Position numbers and translations under genes: made by a program
IMG/VR virus record: IMGVR_UViG_2778260932_000003
Location: 9,788 to 73,787 of that record
From: a virus
Direction: 5' to 3' (one strand)
DNA: 64,000 nucleotides
In this document: in pieces, positions 1 to 19,103 of the stretch
Layout: each line of letters opens with the position of its first letter
Position numbering within the stretch: position 1 is the stretch's first letter
Notes under the pieces: model-generated
The model's database searches: none
What the model was told of the DNA's origin: nothing
What the model saw: the letters and a program-made list of their open reading frames with translations, nothing else

Positions 1-1056
1 GAAGTTGGAGGAAATGATGGTAAAGCAGCCGCAGCAGGAGCTTTAGCTGCTTCTTTAGCAGCAGATAGTCTTAGAAATACGTTTGATGACTCTAGAGCCA
101 CTCAAATAGGAGGTAAGATTGTAGGAGCATTAGCTGGCGCAGCTATTACAGGAACTCCTGAAGGTGTTTATGCTGGAGCTAATGCTGGTGAATTAACTAT
201 AGTGCACAACCATGATGAACATGCCATGAACATGTTTGTAAAAGGTGAAAATGGTAGTATATTTCCTCCCGAAGGATCTCTCCAAGAAGCTATAGATTCT
301 TGTTTAATTGACGCAACTTTATGTAATTTTATAGTAGAATTTAGTCCTCTTTCAGTACTTAAAGATGTTAAAGATGCAGAAACAGGAACAGATTATATAA
401 TTGCAGCGGCATCAGCAGCCCCTTGGGCAAAATTAGGAAAAGCAGCTGATAAAAGCGTTGAAGCTATAAAAACTCTTGCTAAAAATGGTAAGTTTGCTGA
501 AGCTACTAGGATTTACAATGATTCTCTTAGAAGTATGGGTAAATTCTTTAAAGGGAATCATAGAGTTAATGATCTAAGTAAGCTTAAAGATATGAATTTA
601 GAGCCTAATATGCTTAGAGCGGGGACTAAAAAATATCTTAAAAGTGAATTCCAAAAACCTGATGCAGCTGTTAGTTATGCTGCAGCATCAGTAACAGTTA
701 ATGGTAAAAAAGAATATTACTTATCTGTAAATGGTGCAGCTTGGTCAGGCAATTCTCCCAATGTCGTAAATATTAATGGGGTTAATTTTAATGTGATTAG
801 AGAAGATAGTGGTTCTATACCATCAGCTCCTAATGGAAAGCAAACTAACTTTAATCACGCTGAACAAAAATTATTTAGTCATTTTCAAGATAATTTTCAA
901 GGTAAGAAAGTAGATATAAATATGTCTATTCAGAATACTAGTGCTACATCTCCAGGAATGTGTGCTGGCTGTAAACCTAATAGCAAAGTATTTGCAGATC
1001 AAAACAAAGATTTTATTATTAATATATTTGAGGGTACAATCGGTAGAAAACCCTAA
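1..1056 (+). CDS. 3' end of a CdiA/FhaB-like polymorphic toxin with a C-terminal Zn-dependent deaminase-fold toxin domain (partial, runs off the window start)
   Basis: Frame 1 is open from base 1 (EVGGNDGKAAAAGALAASL...GKIVGALAGAAITGTPEGVYAGANAGELTIVHN), a Gly/Ala-rich pre-toxin (VENN-like) segment. The C-terminus has HAEQK...SPGMCAGC, the HxE...PxxCxxC deaminase signature. Confidence 0.8.
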   Translation, partial: EVGGNDGKAAAAGALAASLAADSLRNTFDDSRATQIGGKIVGALAGAAITGTPEGVYAGANAGELTIVHNHDEHAMNMFVKGENGSIFPPEGSLQEAIDSCLIDATLCNFIVEFSPLSVLKDVKDAETGTDYIIAAASAAPWAKLGKAADKSVEAIKTLAKNGKFAEATRIYNDSLRSMGKFFKGNHRVNDLSKLKDMNLEPNMLRAGTKKYLKSEFQKPDAAVSYAAASVTVNGKKEYYLSVNGAAWSGNSPNVVNINGVNFNVIREDSGSIPSAPNGKQTNFNHAEQKLFSHFQDNFQGKKVDINMSIQNTSATSPGMCAGCKPNSKVFADQNKDFIINIFEGTIGRKP

Positions 1057-1072
1057 ATATCTAGTGATAAAT

Positions 1073-1110
1073 TCAATATAAAGACCTTAAATCAATATGA
1101 AGACCTTAAA
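1073..1110 (+). repeat. 19-bp tandem repeat TCAATAT(A/G)AAGACCTTAAA, 2 units
   Basis: Units at 1073-1091 and 1092-1110; the last unit contains the ATG at 1097. Confidence 0.9.
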
Positions 1111-1540
1111 TAGAGAAACTGTATCTGGAGTTAGTTTTTATACTATCAGAATGACATATGAAGAATTAGTTATTCTTAGGGACTGTTTACATGATATCTT
1201 ACTTAAATCTAAAGAAATTGAAGAGCAAAATCCTGATAAATTATCCTGGTATAAGTCTACTTTTTTAGAAATATCAGATTGTATACAATCTGAGGCTTTG
1301 AAGGATAAGAATTTAAAAACAAGGATAATTTTGAAAAAAGAACATTTAAACGCTGAAATATTCTATAGCCTTAAATTATCTTATGGAGAACTTGAGTTAA
1401 TTATATATTCTGTTATGAACTTAGAGCGGGATATCAATTATAAACCTTTTTATAGAAAGTTTTCTTTCAGTAAAAAATGTAATGCCAAATTATTGAATGA
1501 TTATTCTCACAAATTACAATCTTTATGGTTAGTAGATTAA
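1097..1540 (+). CDS. Putative immunity protein, unrecognised family ('ImmX'), directly downstream of the deaminase toxin
   Basis: Follows the toxin stop. Has an internal duplication (YTIRMTYEELVIL / YSLKLSYGELELI). Three paralogues at 7830, 9649 and 10791. Confidence 0.6.
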   Translation: MKTLNRETVSGVSFYTIRMTYEELVILRDCLHDILLKSKEIEEQNPDKLSWYKSTFLEISDCIQSEALKDKNLKTRIILKKEHLNAEIFYSLKLSYGELELIIYSVMNLERDINYKPFYRKFSFSKKCNAKLLNDYSHKLQSLWLVD

Positions 1541-1552
1541 TTGGAGCTATAA

Positions 1553-1804
1553 ATGACTAAAACAGAATTAATAGAATATCTACATTCTGCTTATCCCGAA
1601 TTGACTATAGATACTAACTATATTAAAGGTTATTCAGAAGAAGATATTCTAAAATTAGAGAGTCTTCGTGACTTCAAAATTCAAGGACAGTTACGTGAGT
1701 TTTTAACTTATATGGGGCGTTGCAGTGGTGGATTATTTGGAAGTCAACCTTTAAAATTCTATCCGGAAATCGTTAATCCCAAAGGTAAAGAGATATATCA
1801 TTAA
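1553..1804 (+). pseudogene. SUKH (SMI1/KNR4) family immunity protein, 3'-truncated
   Basis: GYSEEDILKLE..FKIQGQLREFLTYMGRCSGG is SUKH-like. About 90 aa shorter than the paralogue at 8288, and the sequence switches to TPS-gene DNA at 1801. Confidence 0.7.
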
Positions 1805-2168
1805 TGCTGACACTATTACAGCAATGGTAGGTCCAAACTCTTTCGGTATGAAAATTCCAGGATTACCTACCAGATTTGAAAATGAAACTCCTCAATCTGG
1901 GTTTTCTATAGATACTGGTAGCCTCGGGGGAATGTATGCTAATAAAAGCATAATACTTCTTAGTAACGAAAAAGATGCCGGCGTGAATATAAGGGATTTA
2001 TCAACTTCAAGGGGACAATTAACGGATGTTACTGTGCAATTAACGAAAGACTCTGGAGCCGTATATACTACTAACCAAAAACAAGATATAATTGTTGCAG
2101 CTAATAGATATTTTCATGAGGGTGTAGAATTAGTGCTTATTGATGGTGTTTGGCATCGAAAGCAATGA
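1801..2168 (+). pseudogene. 3' part of a small TPS-domain gene
   Basis: ttaatgctgacactattacagcaatggtagg matches 9477-9507. The protein closely matches the C-terminal ~115 aa of 11867..12823 (FENETPQ.GFSIDTG.LGGMYANKSIILLSNEK). Confidence 0.75.
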
Positions 2169-2204
2169 TTGAACAGATATTATGTCACTTAAAAAGAGAA
2201 TCTT

Positions 2205-3183
2205 ATGATTACTAAAAACATTAAAGATTTTACAAAAGTAACCTCAATTTCTATATTAGCTTTATTGATTTCTAATAATTTAGCTTTTGCAAATCCAGTT
2301 ATCCCTAATGATAATAGAACTCAAGTAAATATAGTTAATAATATACCCGTAATAGATATAGCTACTCCTAATATTTCAAGAGTATCTCATAACGTCTATA
2401 AAGAATTTAATACTTCTGAAAAAGGTTTAGTGTTCAATAATTCATTAAATGGTACTACATCTCAACTAGTAGGACAACTAAATAAAAGCCCTAATCTTAG
2501 AAATAGACCAGCCGGAATAATTGTTAACGAGGTAGTTGGAGGCAATCTATCTCAACTTAAAGGTATGATTGAAGTAGCTGGAGATTTTGCTAGTGTGGTG
2601 ATATCTAACCCTAGTGGTATTTCAATTAATGGACTTACTTTCAGTGATACTATTGGTGAAGCTAATTTTACCACTGGAACTATTACCTTTGATAAAAGAA
2701 AAAATTTAGAGGAGTCTAAAGTAACTAAAGGACATATTACTATTGGAGAAGATGGGATAAATACTAGAAATGTTAACTATCTTAATTTGTTTAGCAAAAC
2801 TATCAAGATAGATGGAGATATTGAAGGAGATTATGTTTCTGTTCATGCTGGCGGTGTTTTAACAGATATGAAAAACCTTACTTATACTTGGATTGAATCT
2901 GAAGGTCCTAAACCTGAATTCTCAATAGATACTAGTGACATGGGTGGAATATACGCTAATAGAATCGTAGTGATATCTACTGATAAAGGAACCAGAGTTA
3001 ATTTAAATGATTTAGATGGAAAAAAACCTGATTAAGATAAACGCCCCTTATAGTAGCACTGTAAATATTAATGGGGTTTTTAGAAATGATAATAACAATA
3101 TAACTATAAATGCTAATAACTTAAATGATAATGGAACAAAATTAAAATGGTCTGATGATAAAAATAGATGGGAGCCAATTTAA
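2205..3183 (+). CDS. Small stand-alone TPS (haemagglutination activity) domain protein with signal peptide; +1 frameshift in A7 at 3020-3026
   Basis: Signal peptide ending LAFA|NP. TPS motifs IDIATPN..VSHNVYKEFN, IIVNEVVG, ISNPSGI, FSIDTSDMGGIYAN. Removing one A extends the ORF to ...KLKWSDDKNRWEPI* at 3183. Confidence 0.7.
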
Positions 3184-3295
3184 TATTTACCAGTCTTAGT
3201 TAAAAAGTATAAGTAATTCTATTAATTGCAAGAGACTTATATGCTTTTCATAATTTCTTGCAATTTTTTTCTAAATGAACTAATGGCAGGAAATT

Positions 3296-5991
3296 ATGAA
3301 AAAACCCAATAATCCTGATAATGTTAATCAGTTTACAAAAGCTTTAACCTATCTTCTTATATATCTAATAGGTATTTATCCTATCAGCATCGTTGCTGCA
3401 AATCCAATTATCTCCAATGATAACAGAACTCAAATAAATGTAATTGATGATGTTCCTGTTATTGATATAGCTGCCCCTAATATTAGGGGGATCTCTCATA
3501 ACGTTTATAAAGAATTTAATGTCGAAGAGCAAGGTGCAGTTTTAAAATAACTCAATAGATACTGCATTATCTGAAATATTAGGAGATGTAGATAAAAACC
3601 CTAATTTTCAAGATAGATATGCAGATTTAATCATTAATGAAGTAGTCGGGGGTAATCAATCTCAGCTTAAAGGACCGTTAGAAGTAGCTGGCGATAGAGC
3701 TTCAGTGATAATATCTAACCCCAATGGTATTACTGTTAATGGCGGCGGCTTTCTTAATATGTCCGTTGCTACATTAACTACAGGTAAACCTACTTTAAAT
3801 AATGAAGGATTTTTAGATAACTTACGGATAACTAAAGGCCAAATTAATATTGAGAGTGATGGCTTAGATGGCAGTTTTGATTCTATATATTCTATAGATT
3901 CTATAGATATAATTAGTATAACTTTGAATTTAACTGGTAGGATAAATGGTCAAGGGAATAATATCAGTATAATTCAGGGTACTAACCAAATTAATTATGG
4001 AGGTTATAGTAACCAACGCAATATGAAACAGAGTCTGTAAAGCGAAATTGGTTAGGTGGAAAGAAAACTTTTAAGAAAATTCACCAAACTTCAACCCCAG
4101 TTGTTACAGAGTTTTCTGCTCCTACCGGTTATATCAATATTTTAGGTAGAGATGATGTTACTTTTGAAGGTAGTAAAATAGAAGCCGGCAAAAATACTAA
4201 TTTAACTAGTCTTCAAGGTAAAGTTAACTTCAAAGCTGTAAGTTCTTTAGATTTTGAACAAGAACTTAGTATGTCTAAAGGGTTTTACATTAAGCAAAGA
4301 AATAAAGGTTACCAAGAAAATATTTGGTATTTACCTCAAATTAATATTGGAGGAACACTTACTGTTAATGCTACCGGTATTAATGTTGATATAAAAACAA
4401 AGGATAATCAAAATCTTCAAGATGCCATTGACTTACTAAGCGATGGTTATGGTATGTCTTGGATAAAAGATATAAGCAAACGAAATGATGTTGAATGGAA
4501 TAAAATACAAGATGCTTATTCTGAATGGAACATTAACAATAAAAACTTAAATCCGGTTGTAGGGGCAGTAATAGCTGTAGTACTATAAAATCTATAGTTA
4601 CTTCAGCGGCTATTGGAGGTGCATTAGCTGGATTTGATTCTGCAATGGGTTGGGATAAAGGCAGTGCTGCAATAAGCAAAGAGAGTATGCCTATATTGAG
4701 TAGCAAAGATTGGATAGCTACTGCTCAAAGGATTGCCGGACATTCTTTAATTAGCTCTGGAATAAACACTACTATTAATGGGGGTAGTTTTAAAGATAAT
4801 TTCATGTCCACACTATTATCTAATTCAGTTAGTCAACTTCATGCTGAAGGCGCAAATCTTATAGGAAGAAATGGGGAGATTTTAGGGGACACTGGAAGAC
4901 TTCTAAGTCATGGAGTTTTATCAGCAATTACAGCTGAAATTGGCGGAGGAGACCCTCTGGCGGCTGCAGTAGGTTCAATGGCGGCTGAATATGCAGCAAT
5001 ATCTCTAAAAAATACTTTTCATAATGAACCTGAAAAATTAATAATGAGTGGTAAAGTTATAGGGGGTTTAGCTGGAGCATTAATTTCAGGAACAGCAGAG
5101 GGTGTCCATAGTGGAGCTGATGCAGCAGAATTAGCCATTATATATAATTCTTTAGGTGGAGATAAGATTAGACAACAGCTTGAAGAAGATAAAGAACTTA
5201 CAAAACAATTAGTTAGAGAAAAAAATTGGTGAAAACGCGGCTTCTGGATTAGTTAATGGCCTTTTAAGTAGTGTAACAGGATTAGGTGATTTTGCATTAG
5301 CTGGAGGAGATACTGTATTTGATGCCACAGCGGCTTTTGTAACTTGTGCATTGGGTATTAATTATTGTCAACAAGCTAGAGGTGATTTACATAAAGCAAA
5401 TGAAACCGTTAATACTATTTTTAATTCTATTGTCAATGGAGACTTGTGGGAAGATGTTAAATCTACAGTGGTAAAAGCCAATAATGGAGATCAACAAGCT
5501 TTAGAAGATGTAGCTACACTTATATTTGATACTGTATCTCCCTCTAAATTTTCTTCATTTAAAAATACAACTCCAATGAAAGTTAATGGAGTTGTTCGTA
5601 TAGTAATTACAGAACCTACCACTAATATGAAACCTAATATTGGTGGATATCAAACAGTAACAAATGAAGTATCAACACAAGTTCAAAACGCTAGAATACG
5701 TCAACATCAAATGTTGAATGATAATGTTGGATATAATATGAATCCTTTTGAATCTGATGCAAATTATCCTTCAATAGGGCGTTATGGTACTAATGAAAAA
5801 TTCATTAATGAATGGATTTAATATTCGTAAAATTGAAGATATACGTAGTAAGTCCCAGAAGCCCTACACCAGAAGCTGGTAACGAACATTTTCTTGGAGC
5901 TGGACAACATTTGCCCGGAGGAGCTCCTGAAATAGTAATAGATTCAGTACCAACATCAGCTAAACCTATTTTAAAGGTAAACGTAGAATGA
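3296..5991 (+). pseudogene. Internally deleted/frameshifted CdiA-like gene: signal peptide + TPS, DUF637-like region, VENN-like pre-toxin and a non-deaminase toxin C-terminus
   Basis: ORF pieces 3296-3550, 3705-4040, 4271-4588, 4645-5232 and 5351-5821. +1 A at 3544-3547 and 5219-5225 rejoin pieces. SSGINTTINGGSFKDNF resembles DUF637; GGLAGALISGTAEGVHSGADAAELAIIYN parallels the pre-toxin of ORF 1..1056. The last frame ends ...PGGAPEIVIDSVPTSAKPILKVNVE*. Confidence 0.7.
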
Positions 5992-6066
5992 GTATATATC
6001 CGAAAAATTCAATTATCGTTGATGATATGGAAACTACATTTAGTCTTATAATTACGAAAAAAGATA

Positions 6067-6447
6067 ATGAATTTAATTACTAGAATGGAAAACTTAGGTT
6101 TTTCTGTAGTTACTGATGAAGTAATAGACTACTACAACGATGCAGTAGAGAAAGATAAAACTTATGAATATTATAATTATGTAGATCGTTCAGCAAATTA
6201 CATGAAATTTAATATAGTGGGATACGGGCACGAAGACAAAGCAAAGGTAGCTAAAGAATTAATCAAAGAAGGAGCTCTTTTTTCGCGGGCTGGAAGAATT
6301 TGGCCTCCTGAAGAAGTTATGAGATATTATAGAGAACGGGGTTTGATTATGGAAAATTATAAGACTATTGCATGGTATAGTGGAAAATACTATATATATG
6401 ATGGTCATACTGAAAAATTATTAGAAGATTATAGTGGAAAACTATAA
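6067..6447 (+). CDS. Putative immunity protein for the toxin end at ~5640-5991
   Basis: Small, Tyr-rich ORF directly downstream of the toxin C-terminus; no family recognised. Confidence 0.5.
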   Translation: MNLITRMENLGFSVVTDEVIDYYNDAVEKDKTYEYYNYVDRSANYMKFNIVGYGHEDKAKVAKELIKEGALFSRAGRIWPPEEVMRYYRERGLIMENYKTIAWYSGKYYIYDGHTEKLLEDYSGKL

Positions 6448-6449
6448 AA

Positions 6450-6806
6450 GAATTTGCTAAAAAGATAAGTTTTCTGAAGCTACTAAGATTTACAATGCTT
6501 CTCTTAGAAGCATTGTAAATTCTTTAAAGTCAATTACAGAGTTAATAATTTAAGCAAACTTAAAGATGTAAATTTAGATTCAAACATGTTATGAGGAGAG
6601 GTTGATAACTATTTAGGTGCTTCTTATAAAGTAGGTAAACCAAATGTGAAACTTTATAGTATATCTGTAGCATCTGTAACAGTAGATGGTAAAAAAGAAT
6701 ATTACTTATATGTAAACTCAGGAGCTTGGTCAGGTATTTCTCCTATATTGAAGGGATTGATTATAAAGTGATTAGAAAAGATAGTGGCTTTATACCATCA
6801 GCCCCT
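6450..6806 (+). pseudogene. Decayed fragment of a deaminase toxin variant
   Basis: DNA resembles 478-830 (gaagctactaagatttacaatg, gcatctgtaacagtagatggtaaaaaagaatattactta, gatagtggctttataccatcagcccct) but has stops and indels. Confidence 0.75.
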
Positions 6807-6809
6807 AAT

Positions 6810-7770
6810 ATTGGAGGTAAAATTGTTGGGGCTTTAGCTGGAGCAGCTATTACAGGAACTCCTGAAGGTGTTTATGCTGGAGCTAATGCTGGTGAATTAA
6901 CTATAGTGTACAACCATGATGAACATGCCATGAACATGTTTGTAAAAGGTGAAAATGGTAGTATATTTCCTCCCGAAGGATCTCTCCAAGAAGCTATAGA
7001 TGCTTGTTTAATTGACGCAACTTTATGTAATTTATAGTAGAATTTAGTCCTCTTTCAGTACTTAAAGATGTTAAAGATGCAGAAACAGGAACAGATTATA
7101 TAATTGCAGCGGCATCAGCAGCCCCTTGGGCAAAATTAGGAAAAGCAGCTGATAAAAGCGTTGAAGCTATAAAAAACTCTTGCTAAAAATGGTAAGTTTG
7201 CTGAAGCTACTAGGGTTTACAATGATTCTCTTAGAAGTATGGGTAAATTCTTTAAAGGGAATCATAGAGTTAATGATCTAAGTAAGCTTAAAGATAAGAA
7301 TCTAGAGCCAAATATGCTTCGGGGAGAAATTGATGGATTTTTGAAGTCAAAATATAAAAAAGATGGGACAGATCCAAAATCTTATAGTATATCTGGAGCA
7401 TCAGTAACAGTTGACGGTAAAAAAGAATATTACTTATCTGTAATTGGAGATGCTTGGTCAGGTACTTCTCCAAATGTCGTAAATATTAATGGGGTTAATT
7501 TTAATGTGATTAGAGAAGATAGTGGTTCTATACCATCAGCTCCTAATGGAAAGCAAACTAACTTTAATCACGCTGAACAAAAATTATTTAGTCATTTTCA
7601 AGATAATTTTCAAGGTAAGAAAGTAGATATAAATATGTCTATTCAGAATACTAGTGCTACATCTCCAGGAATGTGTGCTGGCTGTAAACCTAATAGCAAA
7701 GTATTTGCAGATCAAAACAAAGATTTTATTATTAATATATTTGAGGGTACAATCGGTAGAAAAACCCTAA
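6810..7770 (+). pseudogene. Second pre-toxin + deaminase toxin cassette (orphan CT), frameshifted
   Basis: Copy B of the repeat. Indels versus copy A: -1 T at ~7031, +1 A at 7171-7176, +1 A at 7760-7764. Keeps HAEQK and PGMCAGC. Confidence 0.8.
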
Positions 7771-7786
7771 ATATCTAGTGATAAAT

Positions 7787-7843
7787 TCAATATAAAGACC
7801 TTAAATCAATATAAAGACCTTAAATCAATATGAAGACCTTAAA
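7787..7843 (+). repeat. 19-bp tandem repeat, 3 units
   Basis: Units at 7787-7805, 7806-7824 and 7825-7843; ATG at 7830. Confidence 0.9.
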
Positions 7844-8275
7844 TAGAGAAACTGTATCTGGAGTTTAGTTTTTTATACTATCAGAATGACATATGAAGAA
7901 TTAGTTATTCTTAGGGACTGTTTACATGATATCTTACTTAAATCTAAAGAAATTGAAGAGCAAAATCCTGATAAATTATCCTGGTATAAGTCTACTTTTT
8001 TAGAAATATCAGATTGTATACAATCTGAGGCTTTGAAGGATAAGAATTTAAAAACAAGGATAATTTTGAAAAAAGAACATTTAAACGCTGAAATATTCTA
8101 TAGCCTTAAATTATCTTATGGAGAACTTGAGTTAATTATATATTCTGTTATGAACTTAGAGCGGGATATCAATTATAAACCTTTTTATAGAAAGTTTTCT
8201 TTCAGTAAAAAATGTAATGCCAAATTATTGAATGATTATTTTCATAAATTACAATCTTTATGGTCAGTAGATTAA
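7830..8275 (+). pseudogene. ImmX copy 2, frameshifted by extra T(s) at ~7864-7874
   Basis: Near-identical to 1097..1540; gagtttagtttttt here versus gagttagttttt in copy A. Confidence 0.75.
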
Positions 8276-8287
8276 TTGGAGTTATAA

Positions 8288-8812
8288 ATGACTAAAACCG
8301 AATTAATAGAATATCTACATTCTGCTTACCCAGAGTTGACTATAGATATTACTTACATTAAGGGCTATTCAGAAGAAGATATAGTAAAATTAGAACGTTT
8401 ATATGATATTAAAATTCAAGGTCAATTACTTGATTTTTTAATTCACATGGGGCGTTGCAGTGGAGGTTTTTTTTCAAATCAACCTTTAAGTTTTTATAGT
8501 AAAACTGCTAATATCAGAGATGAGATAAAATTTCAAATAGGATGTGAAGATGGATTAAGAGAAGTTCAACGATTTGATTTGATAGAACAAAAACCTTTCT
8601 TTATTTCAATGGAAAACGAAGGGATTTTTCATTATTTCTTGTTAACTGATTCAGTTAACCCTGATTTAGTTTATTATCTTGATACTAACTATGACACAAT
8701 AGTAGATACTAGTTTAACTTTTAACGAATATTTAAGAAGTGTTGTAGATTCTAGCAGAAGTTACACTTATAAAATCCCACCTGATTATATGGGAGACTTA
8801 CTTAGAATATAA
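8288..8812 (+). CDS. SUKH (SMI1/KNR4) family immunity protein
   Basis: GYSEEDIVKLERLYDIKIQGQLLDFLIHMGRCSGG and KPFFISMENEG...YFLLT...PDLVYYLD; full length, 174 aa. Confidence 0.75.
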   Translation: MTKTELIEYLHSAYPELTIDITYIKGYSEEDIVKLERLYDIKIQGQLLDFLIHMGRCSGGFFSNQPLSFYSKTANIRDEIKFQIGCEDGLREVQRFDLIEQKPFFISMENEGIFHYFLLTDSVNPDLVYYLDTNYDTIVDTSLTFNEYLRSVVDSSRSYTYKIPPDYMGDLLRI

Positions 8813-8884
8813 CGGTTAAACATATTTCGTTATTGGATCTACTTTGAGTCAAATCAAAGTAGATCCACCTAAAAAGAGACTTTT

Positions 8885-9637
8885 ATGAAAAATATTAGAA
8901 TTTTTACAAAAATAACTTCAATTTCTATTTTATCTTTATTAGTTTCTACTAATCTAGCTTTCGCTAATGATATCATTCTTAATGATTCCAGTACTCAAGT
9001 TAACCAAGTTAATAATGTTCCAGTTATAGATATAGCTGCTCCGACTCTTAATGGTATGTCTAGGAATACTTATAAAGAATTTAACGTAGAAGAACAAGAA
9101 TTAGTTTTTAATAACTCCATAGATTCTGTTAATTCTCAACTAGTAGGTCAATTAAATAAAAATCCTAATTTAAGAGATAGACCAGCTATTCTAATCGTTA
9201 ATGAAGTAGTTGGAGGTAATCAATCCCAACTTAAAGGAGTTGTAGAGACAGTAGGCAATGCAGCTACATTAATAATAACTAATCCAAATAGCGTTTTTCT
9301 CGATGGAGCTAAATTTATCAGCAATGAAACTTTTATCAGCACAGGAAAACCTACTTTTAATAAAAAAGATTTACTTAGTTTAGATGTAACTAAAGGTAAA
9401 GTTACTATTGGAGAAAAAGGCTTAGATTCTGATAACCTTGTTGTTTTCAGTAGATCTCTTCAAGTAAATGGAAAAATTAATGCTGACACTATTACAGCAA
9501 TGGTAGGCCCAAACTCTTTCAGTATGAAAATTCCAGGAATGTGTACTGGTTGTAAAGATACTAGTGCAGTGTTTGCAAAACAGAATAAAGATTTTATTAT
9601 CAATGTATTCCATGGAACAACTGGAACAAGACCTTAA
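8885..9637 (+). CDS. Chimeric gene: signal peptide + TPS domain fused in frame to the last ~34 aa of a deaminase toxin
   Basis: Residues 1-~217 parallel 11867..12823. The tail PGMCTGCKDTSAVFAKQNKDFIINVFHGTTGTRP parallels PGMCAGCKPNSKVFADQNKDFIINIFEGTIGRKP of ORF 1..1056. Confidence 0.75.
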   Translation: MKNIRIFTKITSISILSLLVSTNLAFANDIILNDSSTQVNQVNNVPVIDIAAPTLNGMSRNTYKEFNVEEQELVFNNSIDSVNSQLVGQLNKNPNLRDRPAILIVNEVVGGNQSQLKGVVETVGNAATLIITNPNSVFLDGAKFISNETFISTGKPTFNKKDLLSLDVTKGKVTIGEKGLDSDNLVVFSRSLQVNGKINADTITAMVGPNSFSMKIPGMCTGCKDTSAVFAKQNKDFIINVFHGTTGTRP

Positions 9638-9648
9638 GAGTAATCCAT

Positions 9649-10644
9649 ATGAAACTTTTAAATAGAGAGACTATATCGGGAGTTGCATTTTTCTATATCA
9701 GAATGACACATGAAGAATTAACTTTTCTTAAAAACTGTTTACATGATATTTTACTTAAATCTAAACAAATCAAAGAAGACAATCCCAATAAGTTAATTTG
9801 GTACAAAGCTATTTTTTCAGAAATATCGAATTGTCTGGAGTCTAAGAATTTAAATATCGAGAGGTTAACAACAACTAAAATCGCAAAAGAGTACTTGGAT
9901 AATGAAATAGTCTTTGTTATTAAACTAACATCTGGAGAACATGATTTATTAGTGCATTGTATCAGTGAGTTAAAAAGCGAAGTTCGTAATAGACCTCTTT
10001 ACAGTAAATTGTTATTTTATAAAAAATCACTGTGTAATGATGTTGAAAACTTAAGTGATTATTTTCAAAAATTATTTTATTTTAGGGTAGAACCCTCTAG
10101 TTGGAAACCTCAAATGACCAAAACAGAATTAATAGAATATCTACATTCTTCTTATCCAGAATTAACAATCAATACTACTTATATACGAGGATATTCAGAA
10201 GAAGATATATTAAAATTAGAGCGATTATATAATATTAAAATTCAAAGACAACTATATGATTTTTTAACTCACATGGGACGTTGCAGTGGGGGATTATTTG
10301 GAGACTATCCTTTAGAATTTTATTCAAAAATTGATAGCTCTAAAGACGGACTTATATTTCAAAGTGAATGTCGAAAAAATCTAAAAGATTTGGTTGAAAT
10401 CCAAGGTGAAAGGATGGTAAAACAAAAACCTTTCTTTATTTCAATGGAAAATGAAGGAATTTACAAATATTTTTTAGTAACTGAGTCATATGTCCCCGAT
10501 TTAGTTTATTATCTTGATACTAATTATAATGCGATAGTAAATACCGGATTATCACTTAATGAGTATTTAAGAAAACTTGTTGATACTACCGTTAGAAATT
10601 ATGCAATTAAGCCTCCTTTTGATCAAGAGGGGAGTTTACTTTAG
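9649..10644 (+). CDS. Fused ImmX-SUKH immunity protein
   Basis: The N-half is a paralogue of 1097..1540. The internal MTKTELIEYLHS (ATG 10114) begins a SUKH domain. Confidence 0.75.
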   Translation: MKLLNRETISGVAFFYIRMTHEELTFLKNCLHDILLKSKQIKEDNPNKLIWYKAIFSEISNCLESKNLNIERLTTTKIAKEYLDNEIVFVIKLTSGEHDLLVHCISELKSEVRNRPLYSKLLFYKKSLCNDVENLSDYFQKLFYFRVEPSSWKPQMTKTELIEYLHSSYPELTINTTYIRGYSEEDILKLERLYNIKIQRQLYDFLTHMGRCSGGLFGDYPLEFYSKIDSSKDGLIFQSECRKNLKDLVEIQGERMVKQKPFFISMENEGIYKYFLVTESYVPDLVYYLDTNYNAIVNTGLSLNEYLRKLVDTTVRNYAIKPPFDQEGSLL

Positions 10645-10691
10645 TTAAAAATAACATTCACTAGTATAAGACTGTGGATGAAATGTATAGG

Positions 10692-10779
10692 TTCTGATTT
10701 AATTAACTTAAATCAGAACCAAGCATAAATAACTAATGTGGTTGAAGGTACAATCAGCACAACTGTCAGAAAACTTTAA
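10692..10779 (+). pseudogene. Decayed 3' stub of a further deaminase toxin variant
   Basis: Frame from ~10671 reads LWMKC-IGSDLINLNQNQA*IT-NVVEGTISTTVRKL*. It has the same 16-residue spacing from the second Cys to N..EGT, with aligned QN, as the 1..1056 toxin. Start approximate. Confidence 0.55.
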
Positions 10780-10790
10780 AGAGATAGTTT

Positions 10791-11783
10791 ATGAAACTTT
10801 TAAATAGAAAAATGTATAAAGGTGTAATTACTTATTACGTTGGAATGTCACAACCTGAATTAATTTTTCTTAAAAACTGTTTACACGATATTTTACTTAA
10901 ATTTAATGAAATTGAAGAAAATAATTATGATAAATTAGCCTGGTTAAAAGCTATTTTTTCAGAAATATCAAATTGCTTAGAGTCTAATATTGAACAGTTA
11001 AAAACAACTAGGATCGCAAAAGAATATATAGATAGAGAAGTATTTTGTACTCTCAAACTAACATCTGGAGAACATGATTTACTAGTACAATATATCAAAG
11101 AATTAAAATATACTATCTATAAAACACCCTCATCCAGTAATTTAAAACCTCTGTGCAATGATGTGGAAGAATTAACTAACTATTTTGAAAAACTACAGTA
11201 TTTTGGAGTAAAAGAAACTAATCAAAATTATAAAATGACCAAAACTGAATTAATAGAATATCTACATTCTGCTTACCCAGAATTAACTATAGATACTACA
11301 TATATTAAAGGTTATTCCGAAGAAGATATATCAAAATTAGAATATTTATATGATATCAAAATTCAAGGTCAGTTACTTGAGTTTTTAATTCATATGGGTC
11401 GTTGTAGTGGAGGGTTATTTGAAAGTCAACCTTTATTGTTTTATTGGATAAGGAATAACGAAAATAAAATAAAATTTTCAGAACTTGAATATAAAATGTC
11501 AATTCAAGAGAGTCTTGAATACACTTTTAGAGATATTCAACGGCTTGATCTGATAAAACAAAAACCTTTCATCATTTCATTTGAAAACGAGGGGATTTAC
11601 GACTATTTCTTATTAACTGAGTCAGATACTCCTAATTTAGTTTATTATGTAGATAATAACTATAATGAAGTAGTACTTACTGGATTAACCTTTAATGAGT
11701 ATTTAAGAAGTACTGTGGATTCTTATAGAGCCTATCAATATAAAGCTCCTTTTGATCTAAAAGGAACTTTGCTTGGAATGTAG
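10791..11783 (+). CDS. Fused ImmX-SUKH immunity protein
   Basis: Paralogue of 9649..10644; internal ATG at 11235 (MTKTELIEYLHS). Confidence 0.75.
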   Translation: MKLLNRKMYKGVITYYVGMSQPELIFLKNCLHDILLKFNEIEENNYDKLAWLKAIFSEISNCLESNIEQLKTTRIAKEYIDREVFCTLKLTSGEHDLLVQYIKELKYTIYKTPSSSNLKPLCNDVEELTNYFEKLQYFGVKETNQNYKMTKTELIEYLHSAYPELTIDTTYIKGYSEEDISKLEYLYDIKIQGQLLEFLIHMGRCSGGLFESQPLLFYWIRNNENKIKFSELEYKMSIQESLEYTFRDIQRLDLIKQKPFIISFENEGIYDYFLLTESDTPNLVYYVDNNYNEVVLTGLTFNEYLRSTVDSYRAYQYKAPFDLKGTLLGM

Positions 11784-11866
11784 AAACTATTTTCATTTTG
11801 TTATTTGGTTATTTACCCTACAATTTTTTGATTTATCCAAAACAGATGCACCTAAAAGAGGATTTT

Positions 11867-12823
11867 ATGAAAAACTTTAAAACTTTTACAAAGATTTCTA
11901 CATTAACTTTATTAATTTCTACTAATCTAGCTTTCGCTAATGATATCATTCTTAATGATTCTAACACTCAAATTAACCAAGTTAATAATATTCCGGTTAT
12001 CAACATAGCTACTCCAACTCTTAATGGTATGTCTAGAAATACTTATAAAGAGTTTAATATTAATGAAAAGGGTGTGGTTTTCAATAACTCCATAGATTCT
12101 ACTAATTCTCAATTAGTAGGTCAATTAGATAAAAACCCTAATTTAGCAGATAGGACTGCTATATTAATTGTTAATGAAGTAGTAGGAGGTAATCTATCTC
12201 AACTTAAAGGAGCTATAGAAATAGTTGGAGATGATGCTAAGCTGATTATAACTAACCCTAATGGTGTCATTATTAATGGGGCTAAATTCATAAATGTAAC
12301 GGAATCTTTTATTAGCACAGGTAAACCTGTTTTCAATAAAAAAGATTTACTTAGTTTAGAAGTAACTAAGGGCAAGGTTACTATTGGTGAAAAAGGCTTA
12401 GAATCTACTGAGAATAACCTTGTTGTTTTCAGTAGATCTCTTCAAGTAAATGGAAAAATTAATGCTGATATTATTACAGCGATGATAGGACCTAATTCCA
12501 TGAGTATGAAGGTTCCAGGGATGCCTATCAGATTTGAAAATGAAACTCCTCAACCAGGATTTTCTATAGATACAGGTAATCTTGGAGGTATGTATGCTAA
12601 TAAAAGCATAATACTTCTTAGTAACGAAAAAGGTGCCGGCGTGAATATAAGGGATCTATCAACTTCAAGGGGACAATTAGAAGATGTTGTTGTACAATTA
12701 ATGAAAGACTCCGGAGCCGTACATACTAGTAACCAAAAACAAGATATAATTGTTGCGGCTAATAGATATATTCATGAAGGTGTAGAACTAAAAAATGTTG
12801 ATGGTATATGGCAGCTCCCATAA
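11867..12823 (+). CDS. Small stand-alone TPS-domain protein (318 aa) with signal peptide
   Basis: Start MKNFKTFTK after aagagga; LAFA|ND signal peptide. TPS motifs INIATP, NTYKEFN, ILIVNEVVGG, ITNPNG. Uninterrupted ORF followed by a terminator. Confidence 0.8.
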   Translation: MKNFKTFTKISTLTLLISTNLAFANDIILNDSNTQINQVNNIPVINIATPTLNGMSRNTYKEFNINEKGVVFNNSIDSTNSQLVGQLDKNPNLADRTAILIVNEVVGGNLSQLKGAIEIVGDDAKLIITNPNGVIINGAKFINVTESFISTGKPVFNKKDLLSLEVTKGKVTIGEKGLESTENNLVVFSRSLQVNGKINADIITAMIGPNSMSMKVPGMPIRFENETPQPGFSIDTGNLGGMYANKSIILLSNEKGAGVNIRDLSTSRGQLEDVVVQLMKDSGAVHTSNQKQDIIVAANRYIHEGVELKNVDGIWQLP

Positions 12824-12848
12824 GTTATAGATAACAACCAAAAACTAT

Positions 12849-12874
12849 AAAACCACTCATACGAGTGGTTTTTT
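12849..12874. terminator. Rho-independent (bidirectional) terminator
   Basis: AAAACCACTC-ATAC-GAGTGGTTTT-TT between convergent genes. Confidence 0.8.
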
Positions 12875-12897
12875 CGGACATAATATATAACTAACTG

Positions 12898-13140
12898 TTA
12901 ATGTCTTTGATATAAACATCCTTTAGTTAATCCTTCAGAAATATACAGTTCAGTAGCTAGACTACTCAATACTGGACATTCTTTAGTAATCAATTCTGAA
13001 ATATATTCAGCTAAGTTCTCAATTGTAGTTTCCTTTCTACATATATGAACATTAACATTCTTCAATTTAACTAATTTTTCCATATTGAAACTCATTTCCA
13101 TAAAACCTCTTTCTCCTGTTTTATAAGAAATGCTCAATAA
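12898..13140 (-). pseudogene. 3' fragment of an AT-rich gene cut at the prophage junction; weak resemblance to the C-terminus of QueD/PTPS-like proteins
   Basis: No proper start before the capsid junction at ~13143. ETTIENLAEYI...LYISEGLTKG recalls the PTPS-like T.E.LA...EG..KG pattern (from memory, unverified). Confidence 0.3.
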
Positions 13141-13143
13141 ATC

Positions 13144-13308
13144 TTCAAACGCGGCTACACCATCTTAGATCGCATGGGCGTGCGTATGCTGCGTGATCCG
13201 TACACCCATAAGCCGTTTATCCACTTCTACACCACCAAACGGGTTGGTTCCCTGCGGGTGGACAGCAACGCCGTGAAACTGCTGAAAGTGGCAGAAGATA
13301 AGGCGTAG
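13144..13308 (+). pseudogene. C-terminal 54 aa of an HK97-family major capsid protein
   Basis: Reads FKRGYTILDRMGVRMLRDPYTHKPFIHFYTTKRVGSLRVDSNAVKLLKVAEDKA*, a typical HK97-type capsid C-terminus; not in the ORF track. Confidence 0.85.
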
Positions 13309-13331
13309 TCACCTTATTCTCAGGAGATGAC

Positions 13332-13634
13332 ATGCCTTTTCCCACGATTGATCTGCTTCGGCAGCAGTGCCGTATCGACAGTGATAATCATACCGAAGAT
13401 GATTTATTAGACACTTATGCGCGGGCGGCCATTAAACGGGTCGAAAACTATCTGAATCGCCGCCTGTATGAACAGGCTGTGCCGGAGGATGATCCGGATG
13501 GTCTGTTAGCGACTGACGATGTGACACTGGCAATTATGCTGGCAGTCGGTTACTGGTATGAAAACCGGGAGGCACAGACCTTACCCACCGGATTTAAATC
13601 GTTGCTGGAACCCTACCGTTTTATTCCGTTATAG
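13332..13634 (+). CDS. Head-tail connector (HK97 gp6-like)
   Basis: LRQQCRID...DDLLDTYARAA...LAIMLAVGYWYENREA...LLEPYR. Confidence 0.9.
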   Translation: MPFPTIDLLRQQCRIDSDNHTEDDLLDTYARAAIKRVENYLNRRLYEQAVPEDDPDGLLATDDVTLAIMLAVGYWYENREAQTLPTGFKSLLEPYRFIPL

Positions 13635-13644
13635 GAGAATGCCG

Positions 13645-13971
13645 ATGAAAGCGGGCTCACTTCGCTATCGCATTAAACTGTTTCGCCCTGTAAAAAACCG
13701 TGATGATCTGGGTGCTGAAATCATTGGGCGGGAATATGTCACTGAAACCTGGGCACGAGCGGACGCCATGTCCAACCGCAAAATCCGCACGGCGGATCAG
13801 CAACAGGTGATCGAGGTGCAACAATTTACCGTCAGGCCAAGAAAAGATATTGAACCTGATTGGTTGGTTGAACATCAGGGACGGCTGTTTACCGTTCGCA
13901 CTGTGGATCGTAACCATACTGACCGTGCCGTTATCACCACGGAGGCCGATGCGCACCATGATCGAACCTGA
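13645..13971 (+). CDS. Head closure / head-tail adaptor (SPP1 gp16-like)
   Basis: MKAGSLRYRIKL...WARAD; RBS AGGAG at 13633. Confidence 0.85.
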   Translation: MKAGSLRYRIKLFRPVKNRDDLGAEIIGREYVTETWARADAMSNRKIRTADQQQVIEVQQFTVRPRKDIEPDWLVEHQGRLFTVRTVDRNHTDRAVITTEADAHHDRT

Positions 13972-14347
13972 ACTGAAAGCGGATTTAGAACGATTAACGA
14001 ATCTGCCAGTTTATCCGCTGATACTGCCGTCCAGCGTGTTAGAGGGCGTGACCTATCAGCGTATCAGCGATCTCCGATTCAATATCGGGCTGGCGGCCTC
14101 GCCGTTAATCGAAGCGCGTTTCCAAATCAGCATTATGGTGCTGAACGATTACTCCCAGGCTTTGCGACTGGAAGCCAAAATCCGTACCACATGGGAATCC
14201 GTGCAGCATGGCAGGCTCGGCGGCTATCCGGTGCAAACCGTTTCACGCGGAATGTTGCAGCAGGCGGTGGAAGAGTTGACGGAAAACCGCAAGCGCTACC
14301 GTATTACACGGGACTTTATCATCACTTACACGGAGCATCTGACATGA
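13958..14347 (+). CDS. Tail terminator protein (DUF3168-like)
   Basis: MIEPELKADLERLTNLPVYPL...VTYQRISD...RFQISI; GGAGG upstream. Confidence 0.7.
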   Translation: MIEPELKADLERLTNLPVYPLILPSSVLEGVTYQRISDLRFNIGLAASPLIEARFQISIMVLNDYSQALRLEAKIRTTWESVQHGRLGGYPVQTVSRGMLQQAVEELTENRKRYRITRDFIITYTEHLT

Positions 14348-14748
14348 TCACCGCAAAAACAATGGGATGGACAGAGTTGGGGCATAAATTGCAGGTACTG
14401 GACAGTGATCTCCAGACCCACATCCTGCGCAAAGCCGGAAAAGTTGCCATGGCAATCGTTAAAGAAGATATGGCTGCCCACGCCGGTTATAACCGAAAAA
14501 ATGAGGGTTCCCATCTGCGGGAGGCCATTCAGATCCGTTCGACAAAATCGAAAAAATACACAGGCGGGGTGATGATCACCGTGGGGCCGACAAAACCCCA
14601 TCGTATGAAAGCACTGGCGCAGGAGATGGGCACGATTAAGCAGGTGCCAAAACCCTTTATCCGTCCGGCGCTGGATTACAACAAAACCACTGTTATTAAA
14701 GTGCTCGCGCAGGAAATCCGCGATGCCTTATCAGGGTACAGTCAATAG
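14344..14748 (+). CDS. HK97 gp10-like tail completion protein
   Basis: ATGA overlap; GWTELGHKLQ...HLREAIQI...EMGTIKQVPKPFIRPALD. Confidence 0.85.
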   Translation: MITAKTMGWTELGHKLQVLDSDLQTHILRKAGKVAMAIVKEDMAAHAGYNRKNEGSHLREAIQIRSTKSKKYTGGVMITVGPTKPHRMKALAQEMGTIKQVPKPFIRPALDYNKTTVIKVLAQEIRDALSGYSQ

Positions 14749-14759
14749 GAGAACACATC

Positions 14760-15224
14760 ATGGCAACATCCCCTGAATACGCCGTATTGCCAGCGGGTAC
14801 ACTCGTGAAATTTGGCAAACCCGGCGACAGCGTGGAACAGATGAAACCGCTGATTAACTGCAAGGCATTGGGTGCCACTGGGCTAACGGGCAGTTTTGTC
14901 GATTGCACCACTTTGATGGATACCAACAAACAATTTATTTCCGATATGCCGGAGGGGCCGGGAAAATCCCTCGGCTTTATTGATGATCCGGAGAACTCCG
15001 ATTTTGTTTCTTTCCTGAACGCGGCTGAAAAGCGCGACACGGTGCAATTTTACATCGCCCTGCCGAATAAGCGCACCGCGACAATGGTGCTGGCACTGTC
15101 CGGTTGGGAAATGAACGACATTAACGCCCCGGCCAGTGAAGTGATCCAAATCACGGTCAAGGGCAAACAAAACAGCCTCGTCTGGGGTATCGCTGACACC
15201 AAAACAGGAGTGACCCAATCATGA
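14760..15224 (+). CDS. Major tail tube protein
   Basis: Position in the module; IGATGLTG-like segment, DCTTLMDT.KQFISDMPEG, ALSGWEM. Confidence 0.85.
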   Translation: MATSPEYAVLPAGTLVKFGKPGDSVEQMKPLINCKALGATGLTGSFVDCTTLMDTNKQFISDMPEGPGKSLGFIDDPENSDFVSFLNAAEKRDTVQFYIALPNKRTATMVLALSGWEMNDINAPASEVIQITVKGKQNSLVWGIADTKTGVTQS

Positions 15225-15784
15225 AAAATCTGAAAGCCGCCTTACTCACCCCACGCCCGCAGATTAAGGCAGTGGAGCTGTTTGGCACCCAAATCAACCT
15301 GCGCCGGATGACGGCACTGGAATTACTGGAACTGGAAGAAAAAGCGGAAACGTTCAGTGATGCCGGAAACGGGCGCGACGCCTCCCGCCTGAATATCCAG
15401 ATGGTGCTGGATTGTCTGGTGGATGATAAGGGGAAACCCATTGATAAGGCTGATTTGCCCACCGCCGATGAGTTAATGGCGATCCACGATAACGCCACCC
15501 TGATTGAAGCGATTCAGACCGTGAAGCGTCATGCCATCGGCACACTGGAGGAGGCCGAAAAAAAACTGACCCGCTCGCCGTGGCTGCATTTTGCTTTCAC
15601 GTTAGCTGAACAGCTCGGCGAAATTGACCCCTATCGCATCCTGTCTCTGCCCGCCGCCACGCTTAACGAATGGCAGGCCTATTACCGACTGAAAAACCGC
15701 AAACAGCCAGACAATCCGCCTGTTTCGCCTCCCCGTGATACGGTTCAGGCTCAGTGTGAGGCTGTTATGAAATTATTAGGTTAA
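15221..15784 (+). CDS. Tail assembly chaperone G+T, joined in one frame at the slippery A8 (15558-15565)
   Basis: Lies between tube and tape measure. With A7 the text would read GAA AAA AAC TGA (G stop) with T in the -1 frame (L.LAEQLG..DP...LNEWQAYY). Confidence 0.8.
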   Translation: MKNLKAALLTPRPQIKAVELFGTQINLRRMTALELLELEEKAETFSDAGNGRDASRLNIQMVLDCLVDDKGKPIDKADLPTADELMAIHDNATLIEAIQTVKRHAIGTLEEAEKKLTRSPWLHFAFTLAEQLGEIDPYRILSLPAATLNEWQAYYRLKNRKQPDNPPVSPPRDTVQAQCEAVMKLLG

Positions 15785-15787
15785 GTT

Positions 15788-18700: not shown

Positions 18701-19103
18701 GGATGTCTGGAAGAGTCCCATCATGAATGCGAAAGGTGGCGTTTATCAATCTGCGGATTTAAGTCAGTACAGCGGGCAGATTGTCAGTCAACCGACCTTG
18801 TTTGCATTTGCTAAAGGCGGTGGCGTAATGGGCGAAGCCGGACCAGAAGCTATCCTGCCGTTAAAACGGAGTACTGACGGTAAGCTGGGTGTTCAAGCTA
18901 CAGGCAGTACGGGTAACCAGACCTTCAATACCGTCCATATTGTGATCCATTCCGAGGGTACTCATGACACGAAAACATCTAATGGCGCGGAGTCTGCGGG
19001 GCAGGATATCGCGAAATTTGTCGATCAACGATTCAAATTTTTACTGCATAAAAGTCTAAGTCAAGGTGGTGAACTCAGTGCGGCGATTAAAGGAGGCCGA
19101 TGA
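15788..19103 (+). CDS. Tail tape measure protein (~1100 aa), split by +1 A in A7 at 16622-16628
   Basis: TP901-type core in 15788-16705 and lambda-type C-terminus (NAKGGVY...FAFAKGGGVMGEAGPEAILPL) in 16584-19103. Removing one A gives HLKSKKLSTAEAAKLFG. Confidence 0.9.

Follow-up and report, generated by a model that had tools for sequence, protein, structure and literature searches.

Secretion-domain-only proteins as probable natural cargoes of a conserved Xenorhabdus two-partner secretion locus, with likely relics in a defective prophage

Introduction

The TpsA proteins of two-partner secretion (TPS) systems are the textbook "very large" exoproteins, and polypeptides reduced to the TPS domain (Fha30, HpmA265, and the N-terminal part of ShlA) have hitherto been laboratory tools for the study of secretion and template-assisted folding. 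Isolated TPS fragments, Fha30 included, are exported by their TpsB. In vitro, the TPS domain of ShlA or of HpmA can on its own serve as a folding template for the full-length protein, and the review that describes this work terms HxuA a "relatively small" member of the family (PMC5422565). Here we report on open reading frames (ORFs) of about 320 codons that encode a signal peptide, a TPS domain, and a short tail. They were noticed in a stretch of 64,000 nucleotides, called the window below, that spans positions 9,788 to 73,787 of the viral record IMGVR_UViG_2778260932_000003. Our analysis indicates that these ORFs are probably genuine mini-TpsA genes, that is, natural cargoes the size of Fha30 that are exported by the TpsB of their locus, and that the copies in the window are probable relics.

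The loci described as "cluster III" in Xenorhabdus and Photorhabdus encode DUF637 TpsA proteins with TpsB and TpsI, and their function is called unknown (Kim et al. 2017, PMC5709968). As presented in the passages of that paper that use TPS terms, cluster III is the same type of locus as the one analyzed here, with tpsB, a TpsA of ~1750–1900 aa with TPS and DUF637 domains, and small immunity-like genes. The same passages list tpsB, tpsA, and tpsI and do not mention flanking TPS-only genes of ~320 aa. A description of such genes was not found in the searchable full-text literature, which covers few subscription journals, and an earlier description is possible.

Results

The intact short gene of the window, P0001, occupies positions 11867–12823 on the forward strand and has 318 codons without an internal stop. 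A Shine-Dalgarno sequence, AAGAGGA, is read at 11856–11862, 4 bases 5' of the ATG, and the start Met coincides with the start Met of the orthologues in the alignment. A terminator-like hairpin with a T-run follows at 12849–12872; its stem is 10 bp long and contains GC. By inspection, the N-terminus begins rich in Lys, continues with a hydrophobic core, and has AFA ahead of N25, and the same signal-peptide layout can be read in 14 of 14 aligned members. The only Pfam match is the TPS domain PF05860 at residues 35–267 (124.9 bits, cut-off 33.5), and the only NCBIfam match is the generic "filamentous hemagglutinin N-terminal domain" model TIGR01901 (70 bits, cut-off 29). The domain carries the motifs KNPNL and TNPNG and is followed by a β tail of ~50 aa that ends in GVELKNVDGIWQLP. 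An earlier note on this DNA, made from the sequence alone, had described an uninterrupted gene with its own ribosome-binding site and terminator that encodes a signal peptide, a TPS domain, and a short tail, and each of these elements is found.

Homologues of P0001 were collected by a length-matched protein search, and the contigs of the matches were retrieved and read for gene order. The search returned Xenorhabdus proteins of 311–322 aa that align end to end. Their genes stand in the order s1-tpsB-s2-tpsA-immunity-s3 in at least six species: X. budapestensis, X. indica, X. griffiniae, X. bovienii, X. miraniensis, and X. szentirmaii. The first short TPS gene, s1 (308–322 aa), lies upstream of tpsB (550–573 aa), whose product has POTRA_2, POTRA_3, and ShlB domains. 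The second, s2 (318–322 aa), begins 18–25 nt after tpsB in six loci. It is followed by tpsA (~1740–1767 aa; TPS, DUF637, PT-VENN, and a variable toxin end), by one or two immunity-type genes and, in many loci, by a third short TPS gene, s3 (317–321 aa). P0001 belongs to class s3, with 84–86% identity to its counterparts in X. indica and X. budapestensis. An intact TpsB of 550–573 aa adjoins the short genes in loci L016, L017/L023, L021, L024, L027, and L028, and in L020 the start of TpsB runs off the retrieved locus. The tpsB gene is split in X. griffiniae (L018/L019) and X. szentirmaii (L022), where the flanking short TPS genes are intact. The split genes fall into two or three ORFs (L018:8282-9980, L019:1883-3581, and L022:2898-4594), and the X. 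griffiniae split is probably real because it is the same in two independent assemblies. These data identify the short genes as fixed components of a tpsB/tpsA toxin locus, which the earlier note had missed.

The domain content separates the short proteins from their neighbors. DUF637, PT-VENN, and the toxin end are found by Pfam in the neighboring tpsA genes or fragments, and the short proteins match the TPS domain only. With a total length of 308–326 aa and ~50 residues past the Pfam match, they lack the large passenger of a typical TpsA (>1000 aa), and this is the respect in which they are a variant of the TpsA family. They also differ from orphan cdiA-CT/cdiI genes, which are 5'-truncated toxin fragments without export signals, in having full export signals and no toxin end.

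The lengths of TPS frames were surveyed in the genomes of 36 Xenorhabdus species. Open frames with a TPS domain measure either 317–355 aa from stop to stop or more than 1100 aa; the few of intermediate length come mainly from contig ends or from loci that have visibly decayed. About 25 short TPS proteins of 308–326 aa were found, with a spread within a class of at most 14 residues (308–322 in s1; 4 residues in s2 and in s3). Photorhabdus matches of 335 and 352 aa have C-termini that continue as β-helix repeats; they were taken as truncated long proteins and were not counted. A comparison of homologue lengths had been set beforehand as a check on the proposal of a short form, and the closest homologues are length-conserved short proteins, not full-length TpsA proteins. 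In a tree of TPS domains, s2, s3, and tpsA each form a clade with Shimodaira–Hasegawa-like approximate likelihood ratio (SH-aLRT) support of 97–98, and three of the four s1 sequences group together at 100. The intact copy at 11867–12823 falls in s3 and a frameshifted copy at 2205–3183 in s2. The short forms are therefore old paralogues of preserved length and not products of recent breakage.

Selection was estimated from pairwise Nei-Gojobori ratios of nonsynonymous to synonymous substitution rates (dN/dS). Whole-gene values are mostly 0.14–0.46, with 0.57 for the divergent s1 of X. budapestensis, and P0001 compared with its X. indica and X. budapestensis counterparts in s3 gives 0.24–0.28. 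The TPS part alone gives 0.09–0.37 in most pairs. The tpsB genes, computed for comparison, give 0.16–0.21.

A terminal motif, G-x-K/E-x-x-x-x-D/N-G-x-W, is common to the tails of s2, one subclade of s3, and two additional classes (313 and 326 aa). Its Trp is invariant in s2 (W312 and W319 in alignment A3); s1 and the second s3 subclade lack it. Class s1 also has NxNL and NQNG in place of NPNL and NPNG. The earlier note had stated that three tails of the window end alike. All three are present (GVELVLIDGVWHRKQ, GVELKNVDGIWQLP, and GTKLKWSDDKNRWEPI), but the first comes from a 114-aa fragment and the Trp is specific to certain classes. The tail of that fragment (1824–2168) and the tail ending at 12823 are close copies of one class with 84% nucleotide identity, so the independent tail classes in the window number just two.

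An AlphaFold2 (AF2) model of P0001 built from 14 sequences has a predicted local distance difference test score (pLDDT) of 70, with 50–63 in the tail. Its best matches are Fha30 and HpmA265 (Foldseek E 1e-14 against 1rwr). The tail of this model is too uncertain to interpret, and the structural reading was based on an s2 orthologue from X. szentirmaii, whose model from 23 aligned sequences has a pLDDT of 90 and of 83–93 in the tail. The s2 model has the right-handed β-helix fold of solved TPS domains. It superimposes on Fha30 (1rwr) with Z 37.1 and a root mean square deviation of 1.9 Å over 275 residues (model residues 25–308 on chain residues 1–297), and on HpmA265 with Z 30.7 over 229 residues (model residues 25–261). 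The β strands run to the C-terminus, and the last two (304–308 and 314–318) form a hairpin. The Fha30 superposition shows that most of the tail corresponds to the two extra coils by which Fha30 exceeds a minimal TPS domain, with a last strand added. When the N-terminus of tpsA is aligned, the helix carries on in tpsA where the short proteins stop. The terminal hairpin may cap the end of the β-helix, as the model suggests.

Two genomes hold a short gene with a transporter and nothing more. In X. mauleonii (G021) and in a second species (G024), the locus consists of s1 (320 and 322 aa, respectively) and tpsB (573 aa) alone, both intact and followed by convergent unrelated genes. Between the two species, s1 and tpsB are 79% and 88% identical, respectively, and the tpsB genes have a dN/dS of 0.16. 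Every large TpsA in these genomes has its own adjoining TpsB, and the transporter of the pair is therefore without another obvious client.

Short TPS frames are rare among the 150 other genera of the family that were sampled. A chromosomal locus of Yersinia alsatica/frederiksenii (L033:4463-8869) has a gene for a 570-aa TpsB flanked by genes for TPS proteins of 332 and 471 aa; it lies between a major facilitator superfamily (MFS) transporter gene and dppA and has no large TpsA. The gene lengths are identical in many Y. alsatica/frederiksenii strains. The Yersinia locus is like the s1-tpsB pairs in that small TPS proteins of conserved length are the sole neighbors of TpsB. It is unlike the Xenorhabdus locus in that it is distant (E about 1e-33 to 1e-38 to the profile), has other tails, and has no toxin or immunity genes. 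Two other candidates were set aside. A TPS-only protein of 354–355 aa is length-conserved in several Arsenophonus symbionts (L030:8001-9065), by dnaB, alr, and an aminotransferase gene; as a parallel it is uninformative, being an orphan beside dnaB-alr with no TpsB nearby in eroding symbiont genomes. A 340-aa TPS protein from a metagenome assembly (L032) has no TpsB among its neighbors. Short frames also occur in genomes G157 and G089, in the latter on a contig of 1.8 kb. A separate observation concerns long TpsA-type proteins with two or three complete TPS domains: P0081 (Photorhabdus, 2654 aa), P0084, P0086, P0087 (Burkholderia lata), and P0089. The TPS domains of P0081 lie at residues 14–303, 771–1043, and 1297–1566, with DUF637 after them; an N-terminal export signal would not be expected inside a chain.

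The window holds P0001 in a disturbed setting. Its first 13 kb are an island of 27–37% G+C in a genome of 43% G+C, and the ORF listing and Pfam show a patchwork of TPS toxin parts. BLAST against the X. budapestensis locus resolves the island into shuffled pieces without s1 and tpsB. The 3' half of tpsA with the immunity genes is 96% identical to that locus, s2 with the 5' end of tpsA is 97% identical, and the modules of toxin end, immunity gene, and s3 are 70–88% identical. No ShlB-family match was found in the window. The only intact TpsB of the genome, at 1441792, is of the haemolysin type and belongs with a haemolysin-type TpsA of 1508 aa. The nearest relative of the locus TpsB in the genome (766429–768030) is 58% identical and frameshifted. 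A cognate TpsB is thus lacking from this window and genome and present in the orthologous loci, which bears on function in this genome and not on the identity of the protein. In the genome outside the window, two further TPS loci have decayed, their tpsB and tpsA each broken up into several frames (G000:C1:766300-773000 and 2265900-2272000), and the haemolysin-type pair at about 1.44 Mb is the only intact TPS locus.

Within window positions 1–19103, the island occupies the place where the head and capsid genes of a defective HK97/lambda-like prophage would be expected. A phage lysozyme/Rz cassette and a SIR2-like gene lie upstream, and a truncated head-tail adaptor gene, tail genes, the tape measure gene, and J lie downstream. 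An X. bovienii strain has a homologous prophage island between portal/protease genes and head-closure/tail genes (L036:1-18942), which also holds two fused immunity-SUKH genes and an insertion sequence. Window positions 9513–12813, which contain the fused immunity-SUKH genes and P0001, are 95.9% identical in DNA to L036, and the identity from P0001 into the tail genes is 88%. The island is shuffled and lacks tpsB and s1, and every large tpsA in it is broken; the window copies are therefore probably relics. They are probably remnants of a prophage-borne, repeatedly recombined copy of the locus, in which P0001 is intact but lacks a dedicated exporter. Neither the missing transporter nor the state of the window as a rearranged relic within a defective prophage was recognized in the earlier note.

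Four stretches of the window encode TPS domains without a passenger: 1824–2168, 2205–3183, 8885–9637, and P0001 at 11867–12823. These and the tpsA, toxin-end, immunity, and SUKH pieces described below lie on the forward strand. The stretch at 2205–3183 is a mini-TpsA gene of class s2 with a +1 frameshift and a tail ending in GTKLKWSDDKNRWEPI. Its ORF at 2205–3035 matches PF05860 with 110.3 bits (cut-off 33.5), and the gene shares 91% identity with the 322-aa s2 genes that are intact in X. indica and X. budapestensis. Alignment with these orthologues places one extra A in the tract at 3020–3026 (A7 instead of A6), and the remaining 157 nt past the tract to the stop at 3183 are identical to the orthologues. 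The 1-base correction by which the earlier note had made this stretch a paralogue of the same size is therefore right. The extra A may reflect either a genuine mutation or an error in sequencing the homopolymer. Phase variation at this tract is unsupported, as the tract is merely A6 or A7 and a single case was seen.

The stretch at 1824–2168 is a 3' fragment of 114 aa, the last third of another s3-class gene, with a tail ending in GVELVLIDGVWHRKQ; its DNA matches the last part of an intact gene of X. bovienii L036 (317 aa) at 98.5% identity. The ORF at 8885–9637 (250 aa) is a chimera of a signal peptide and s3-class TPS domain (first ~215 residues) with the last ~30 residues of a deaminase-like toxin. 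Its TPS match spans only profile positions 8–177, and the in-frame joint lies at the shared residues PGM, apparently the site of a microhomology recombination.

The other pieces are remnants of tpsA and toxin modules. At 1–1056 is the 3' end of a 5'-truncated tpsA that has DUF637 and no TPS domain and ends in a deaminase-like toxin (HAE...CAGC); its open frame of 984 codons begins 1898 nt before the window. A degraded tpsA at 3296–5232 survives as pieces at 3296–3550, 3705–4040, 4271–4588, and 4645–5232, with a TPS start, an internal deletion of ~2.4 kb, frameshifts, DUF637, and PT-VENN. An immunity-type gene (147 aa) and a truncated SUKH gene (83 aa) at 1097–1804 are collinear with two X. budapestensis genes, of 143 and 174 aa, downstream of tpsA. 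The region 7239–8812 comprises a toxin-end fragment (7239–7778), an immunity-type gene (7886–8275), and a SUKH gene (8288–8812), assigned from ORFs, Pfam, and locus comparison. Two fused immunity-SUKH genes of 331 and 330 aa (9649–10644 and 10791–11783) fill 9649–11783. Modules of toxin end and immunity gene of the orphan type thus stand beside the short genes at 1–1804 and 7239–8812. An unannotated immunity-type domain of ~145 aa and the SUKH domain are encoded by separate genes in some modules (143–147 aa and 174 aa) and by one fused gene of 330–331 aa in others. The upstream SIR2_2-domain gene (493 aa, L015:14316-15797, 1.9–3.3 kb before the window start) has an odd (RD)n(WD)n dipeptide run. 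Its neighbors are the phage Rz lysis gene on one side and the 5'-truncated tpsA on the other, and it resembles a defense gene in a prophage cargo slot.

Discussion

If the short genes encode mini-TpsA proteins, their export can be outlined. A Sec signal peptide is predicted to direct the protein into export by Sec. The TpsB of the locus would then recognize it via its TPS domain and push it through the outer membrane. Outside the cell, the protein would fold into a closed, self-contained β-helix of ~31 kDa. It would be a cargo in its own right and not a broken toxin. The s1-tpsB pairs argue that s1, at least, is an autonomous cargo rather than a toxin adaptor. For s2 and s3, whose association with tpsA is strict, a role as toxin helpers is possible.

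Several observations weigh against natural cargoes. The loci decay often: tpsB is split in X. griffiniae and X. szentirmaii, and small intact genes can persist by chance for a while. In X. bovienii, L036 has four intact short TPS genes (317, 317, 313, and 326 aa) with neither tpsA nor tpsB nearby. Truncated copies of 223, 210, and 235 aa occur. The model of P0001 itself is of moderate confidence (pLDDT 70). A further objection concerns the tail, whose sequence is weakly constrained. The dN/dS of the last 55 codons is 0.25–1.05 overall: 0.29–0.66 in s2, 0.25–0.39 in one s3 subclade, and 0.6–0.95 in the s3 subclade that holds the window copy. No nonsense change was seen in these codons where ~11–12 would be expected per class under neutrality (tree lengths of 1.5–2.3 synonymous changes per site, with 3–5% of point mutations making stops), although the sample comes in part from a length-restricted search and is subject to ascertainment bias. 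The presence and length of the tail thus appear to be kept in the sequences compared, although selection on its sequence is weak. Of the dN/dS check proposed in the earlier note, purifying selection on the whole gene and the kept presence and length of the tail are borne out; constraint on the tail sequence is weak, which the note had missed.

The best-placed alternative, if an unlikely one, is that the short proteins are accessory factors of the large TpsA. They would be co-secreted via the same TpsB and would nucleate or template toxin folding, cap its helix, or occupy and gate the transporter. Gene arrangement fits this alternative: s2 and s3 are found only with tpsA or its remnants, and s2, 18–25 nt after tpsB, stands directly before tpsA. 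So does size, since the short proteins match the fragments of ShlA and HpmA whose TPS domains template full-length folding in vitro (PMC5422565). Against it, the s1-tpsB pairs persist under purifying selection without an attached large TpsA, and the Yersinia locus has none. If it closes the end of the helix, the terminal hairpin would also hinder end-on templating.

A more far-reaching form of the cargo reading is put forward tentatively and is doubtful as a whole. One TpsB would be a multi-cargo exporter that handles three secretion-domain-only proteins besides the toxin, each with its own job, and these proteins would be a distinct class that also occurs in Yersinia. For example, s1 would work with the transporter, and s2 and s3 would nucleate, cap, or dock the β-helix of the toxin on the cell's surface.

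The short genes might instead matter mainly as DNA, with their repeated TPS homology serving to duplicate, move, or exchange toxin-immunity modules and the proteins being incidental. We regard this as improbable. Each module of toxin end, immunity gene, and SUKH gene in the window and in X. bovienii L036 does end with an s3-type gene, and joints lie inside TPS genes: the fragment at 1824–2168, the chimera at 8885–9637, and what looks, by comparison with L036, like a deletion between two TPS genes. Homology for recombination does not account for purifying selection at the protein level (dN/dS 0.09–0.37 in most TPS-part comparisons), for the conservation of signal peptides, starts, and stop positions, or for s1, which lies upstream of tpsB where no cassette exchange takes place.

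That the short ORFs are random truncations, the pseudogene debris of full-length tpsA or cdiA, is very improbable and contradicted by the data: the window is full of broken tpsA pieces and some truncated TPS ORFs of 180–250 aa exist, but lengths peak sharply at 308–326 aa, the clades match locus position with dN/dS below 1, BLAST against the X. budapestensis locus found no homology of the short genes to tpsA past their stop and, as weak evidence, the P0001 tail (residues 262–318) has no match in the searched proteins of 558–2000 aa. The earlier note had argued for a designed short form rather than random truncation, and positional orthology in at least six species, the length peak, purifying selection, and the maintained tails strongly support that argument. 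As possible roles it had put forward a plug, a decoy, an adaptor, or a cap.

A unit of the size used in the laboratory exists here as a stand-alone gene, in three or more classes and at fixed positions around tpsB and the toxin gene, and in some genomes it is probably the sole cargo of a TpsB. Research on type Vb secretion would gain a small, natural, and tractable substrate, and with it the question of what purpose a secretion domain without a passenger serves. For annotation, proteins of ~320 aa labeled "filamentous hemagglutinin N-terminal domain-containing" in these genera should not be dismissed as fragments. The window is a decayed copy, and its own biological weight is small.

Four described systems are useful comparisons. 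Orphan cdiA-CT/cdiI modules, of which the window has examples, line up as toxin-end and immunity genes next to a TPS toxin locus. They are 3' toxin ends without export signals, whereas the short genes are complete 5' export domains without a toxin. HxuA of Haemophilus influenzae is, like the short proteins, a natural and smallish TpsA with its own TpsB and a related TPS fold (Z 21.8). It differs in its mass of 96 kDa, three times theirs, and in its C-terminal half, which is functional. As TPS-only polypeptides, HpmA265 (Proteus mirabilis) and the N-terminal ShlA fragments (Serratia) resemble the short proteins. They are engineered members of the haemolysin clade that end near model residue 261 and lack the two extra coils and the hairpin. 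The closest match is Fha30 of Bordetella pertussis filamentous haemagglutinin (PDB 1RWR), which has nearly the same extent, both NPNL and NPNG, and a profile E of 7e-54. Fha30 is an engineered truncation of a >300-kDa precursor, whereas the short proteins are encoded by natural genes with their own stop codon, carry ~11 additional C-terminal residues that form the last strand, with its Trp in most classes, and fall into three or more paralogous classes.

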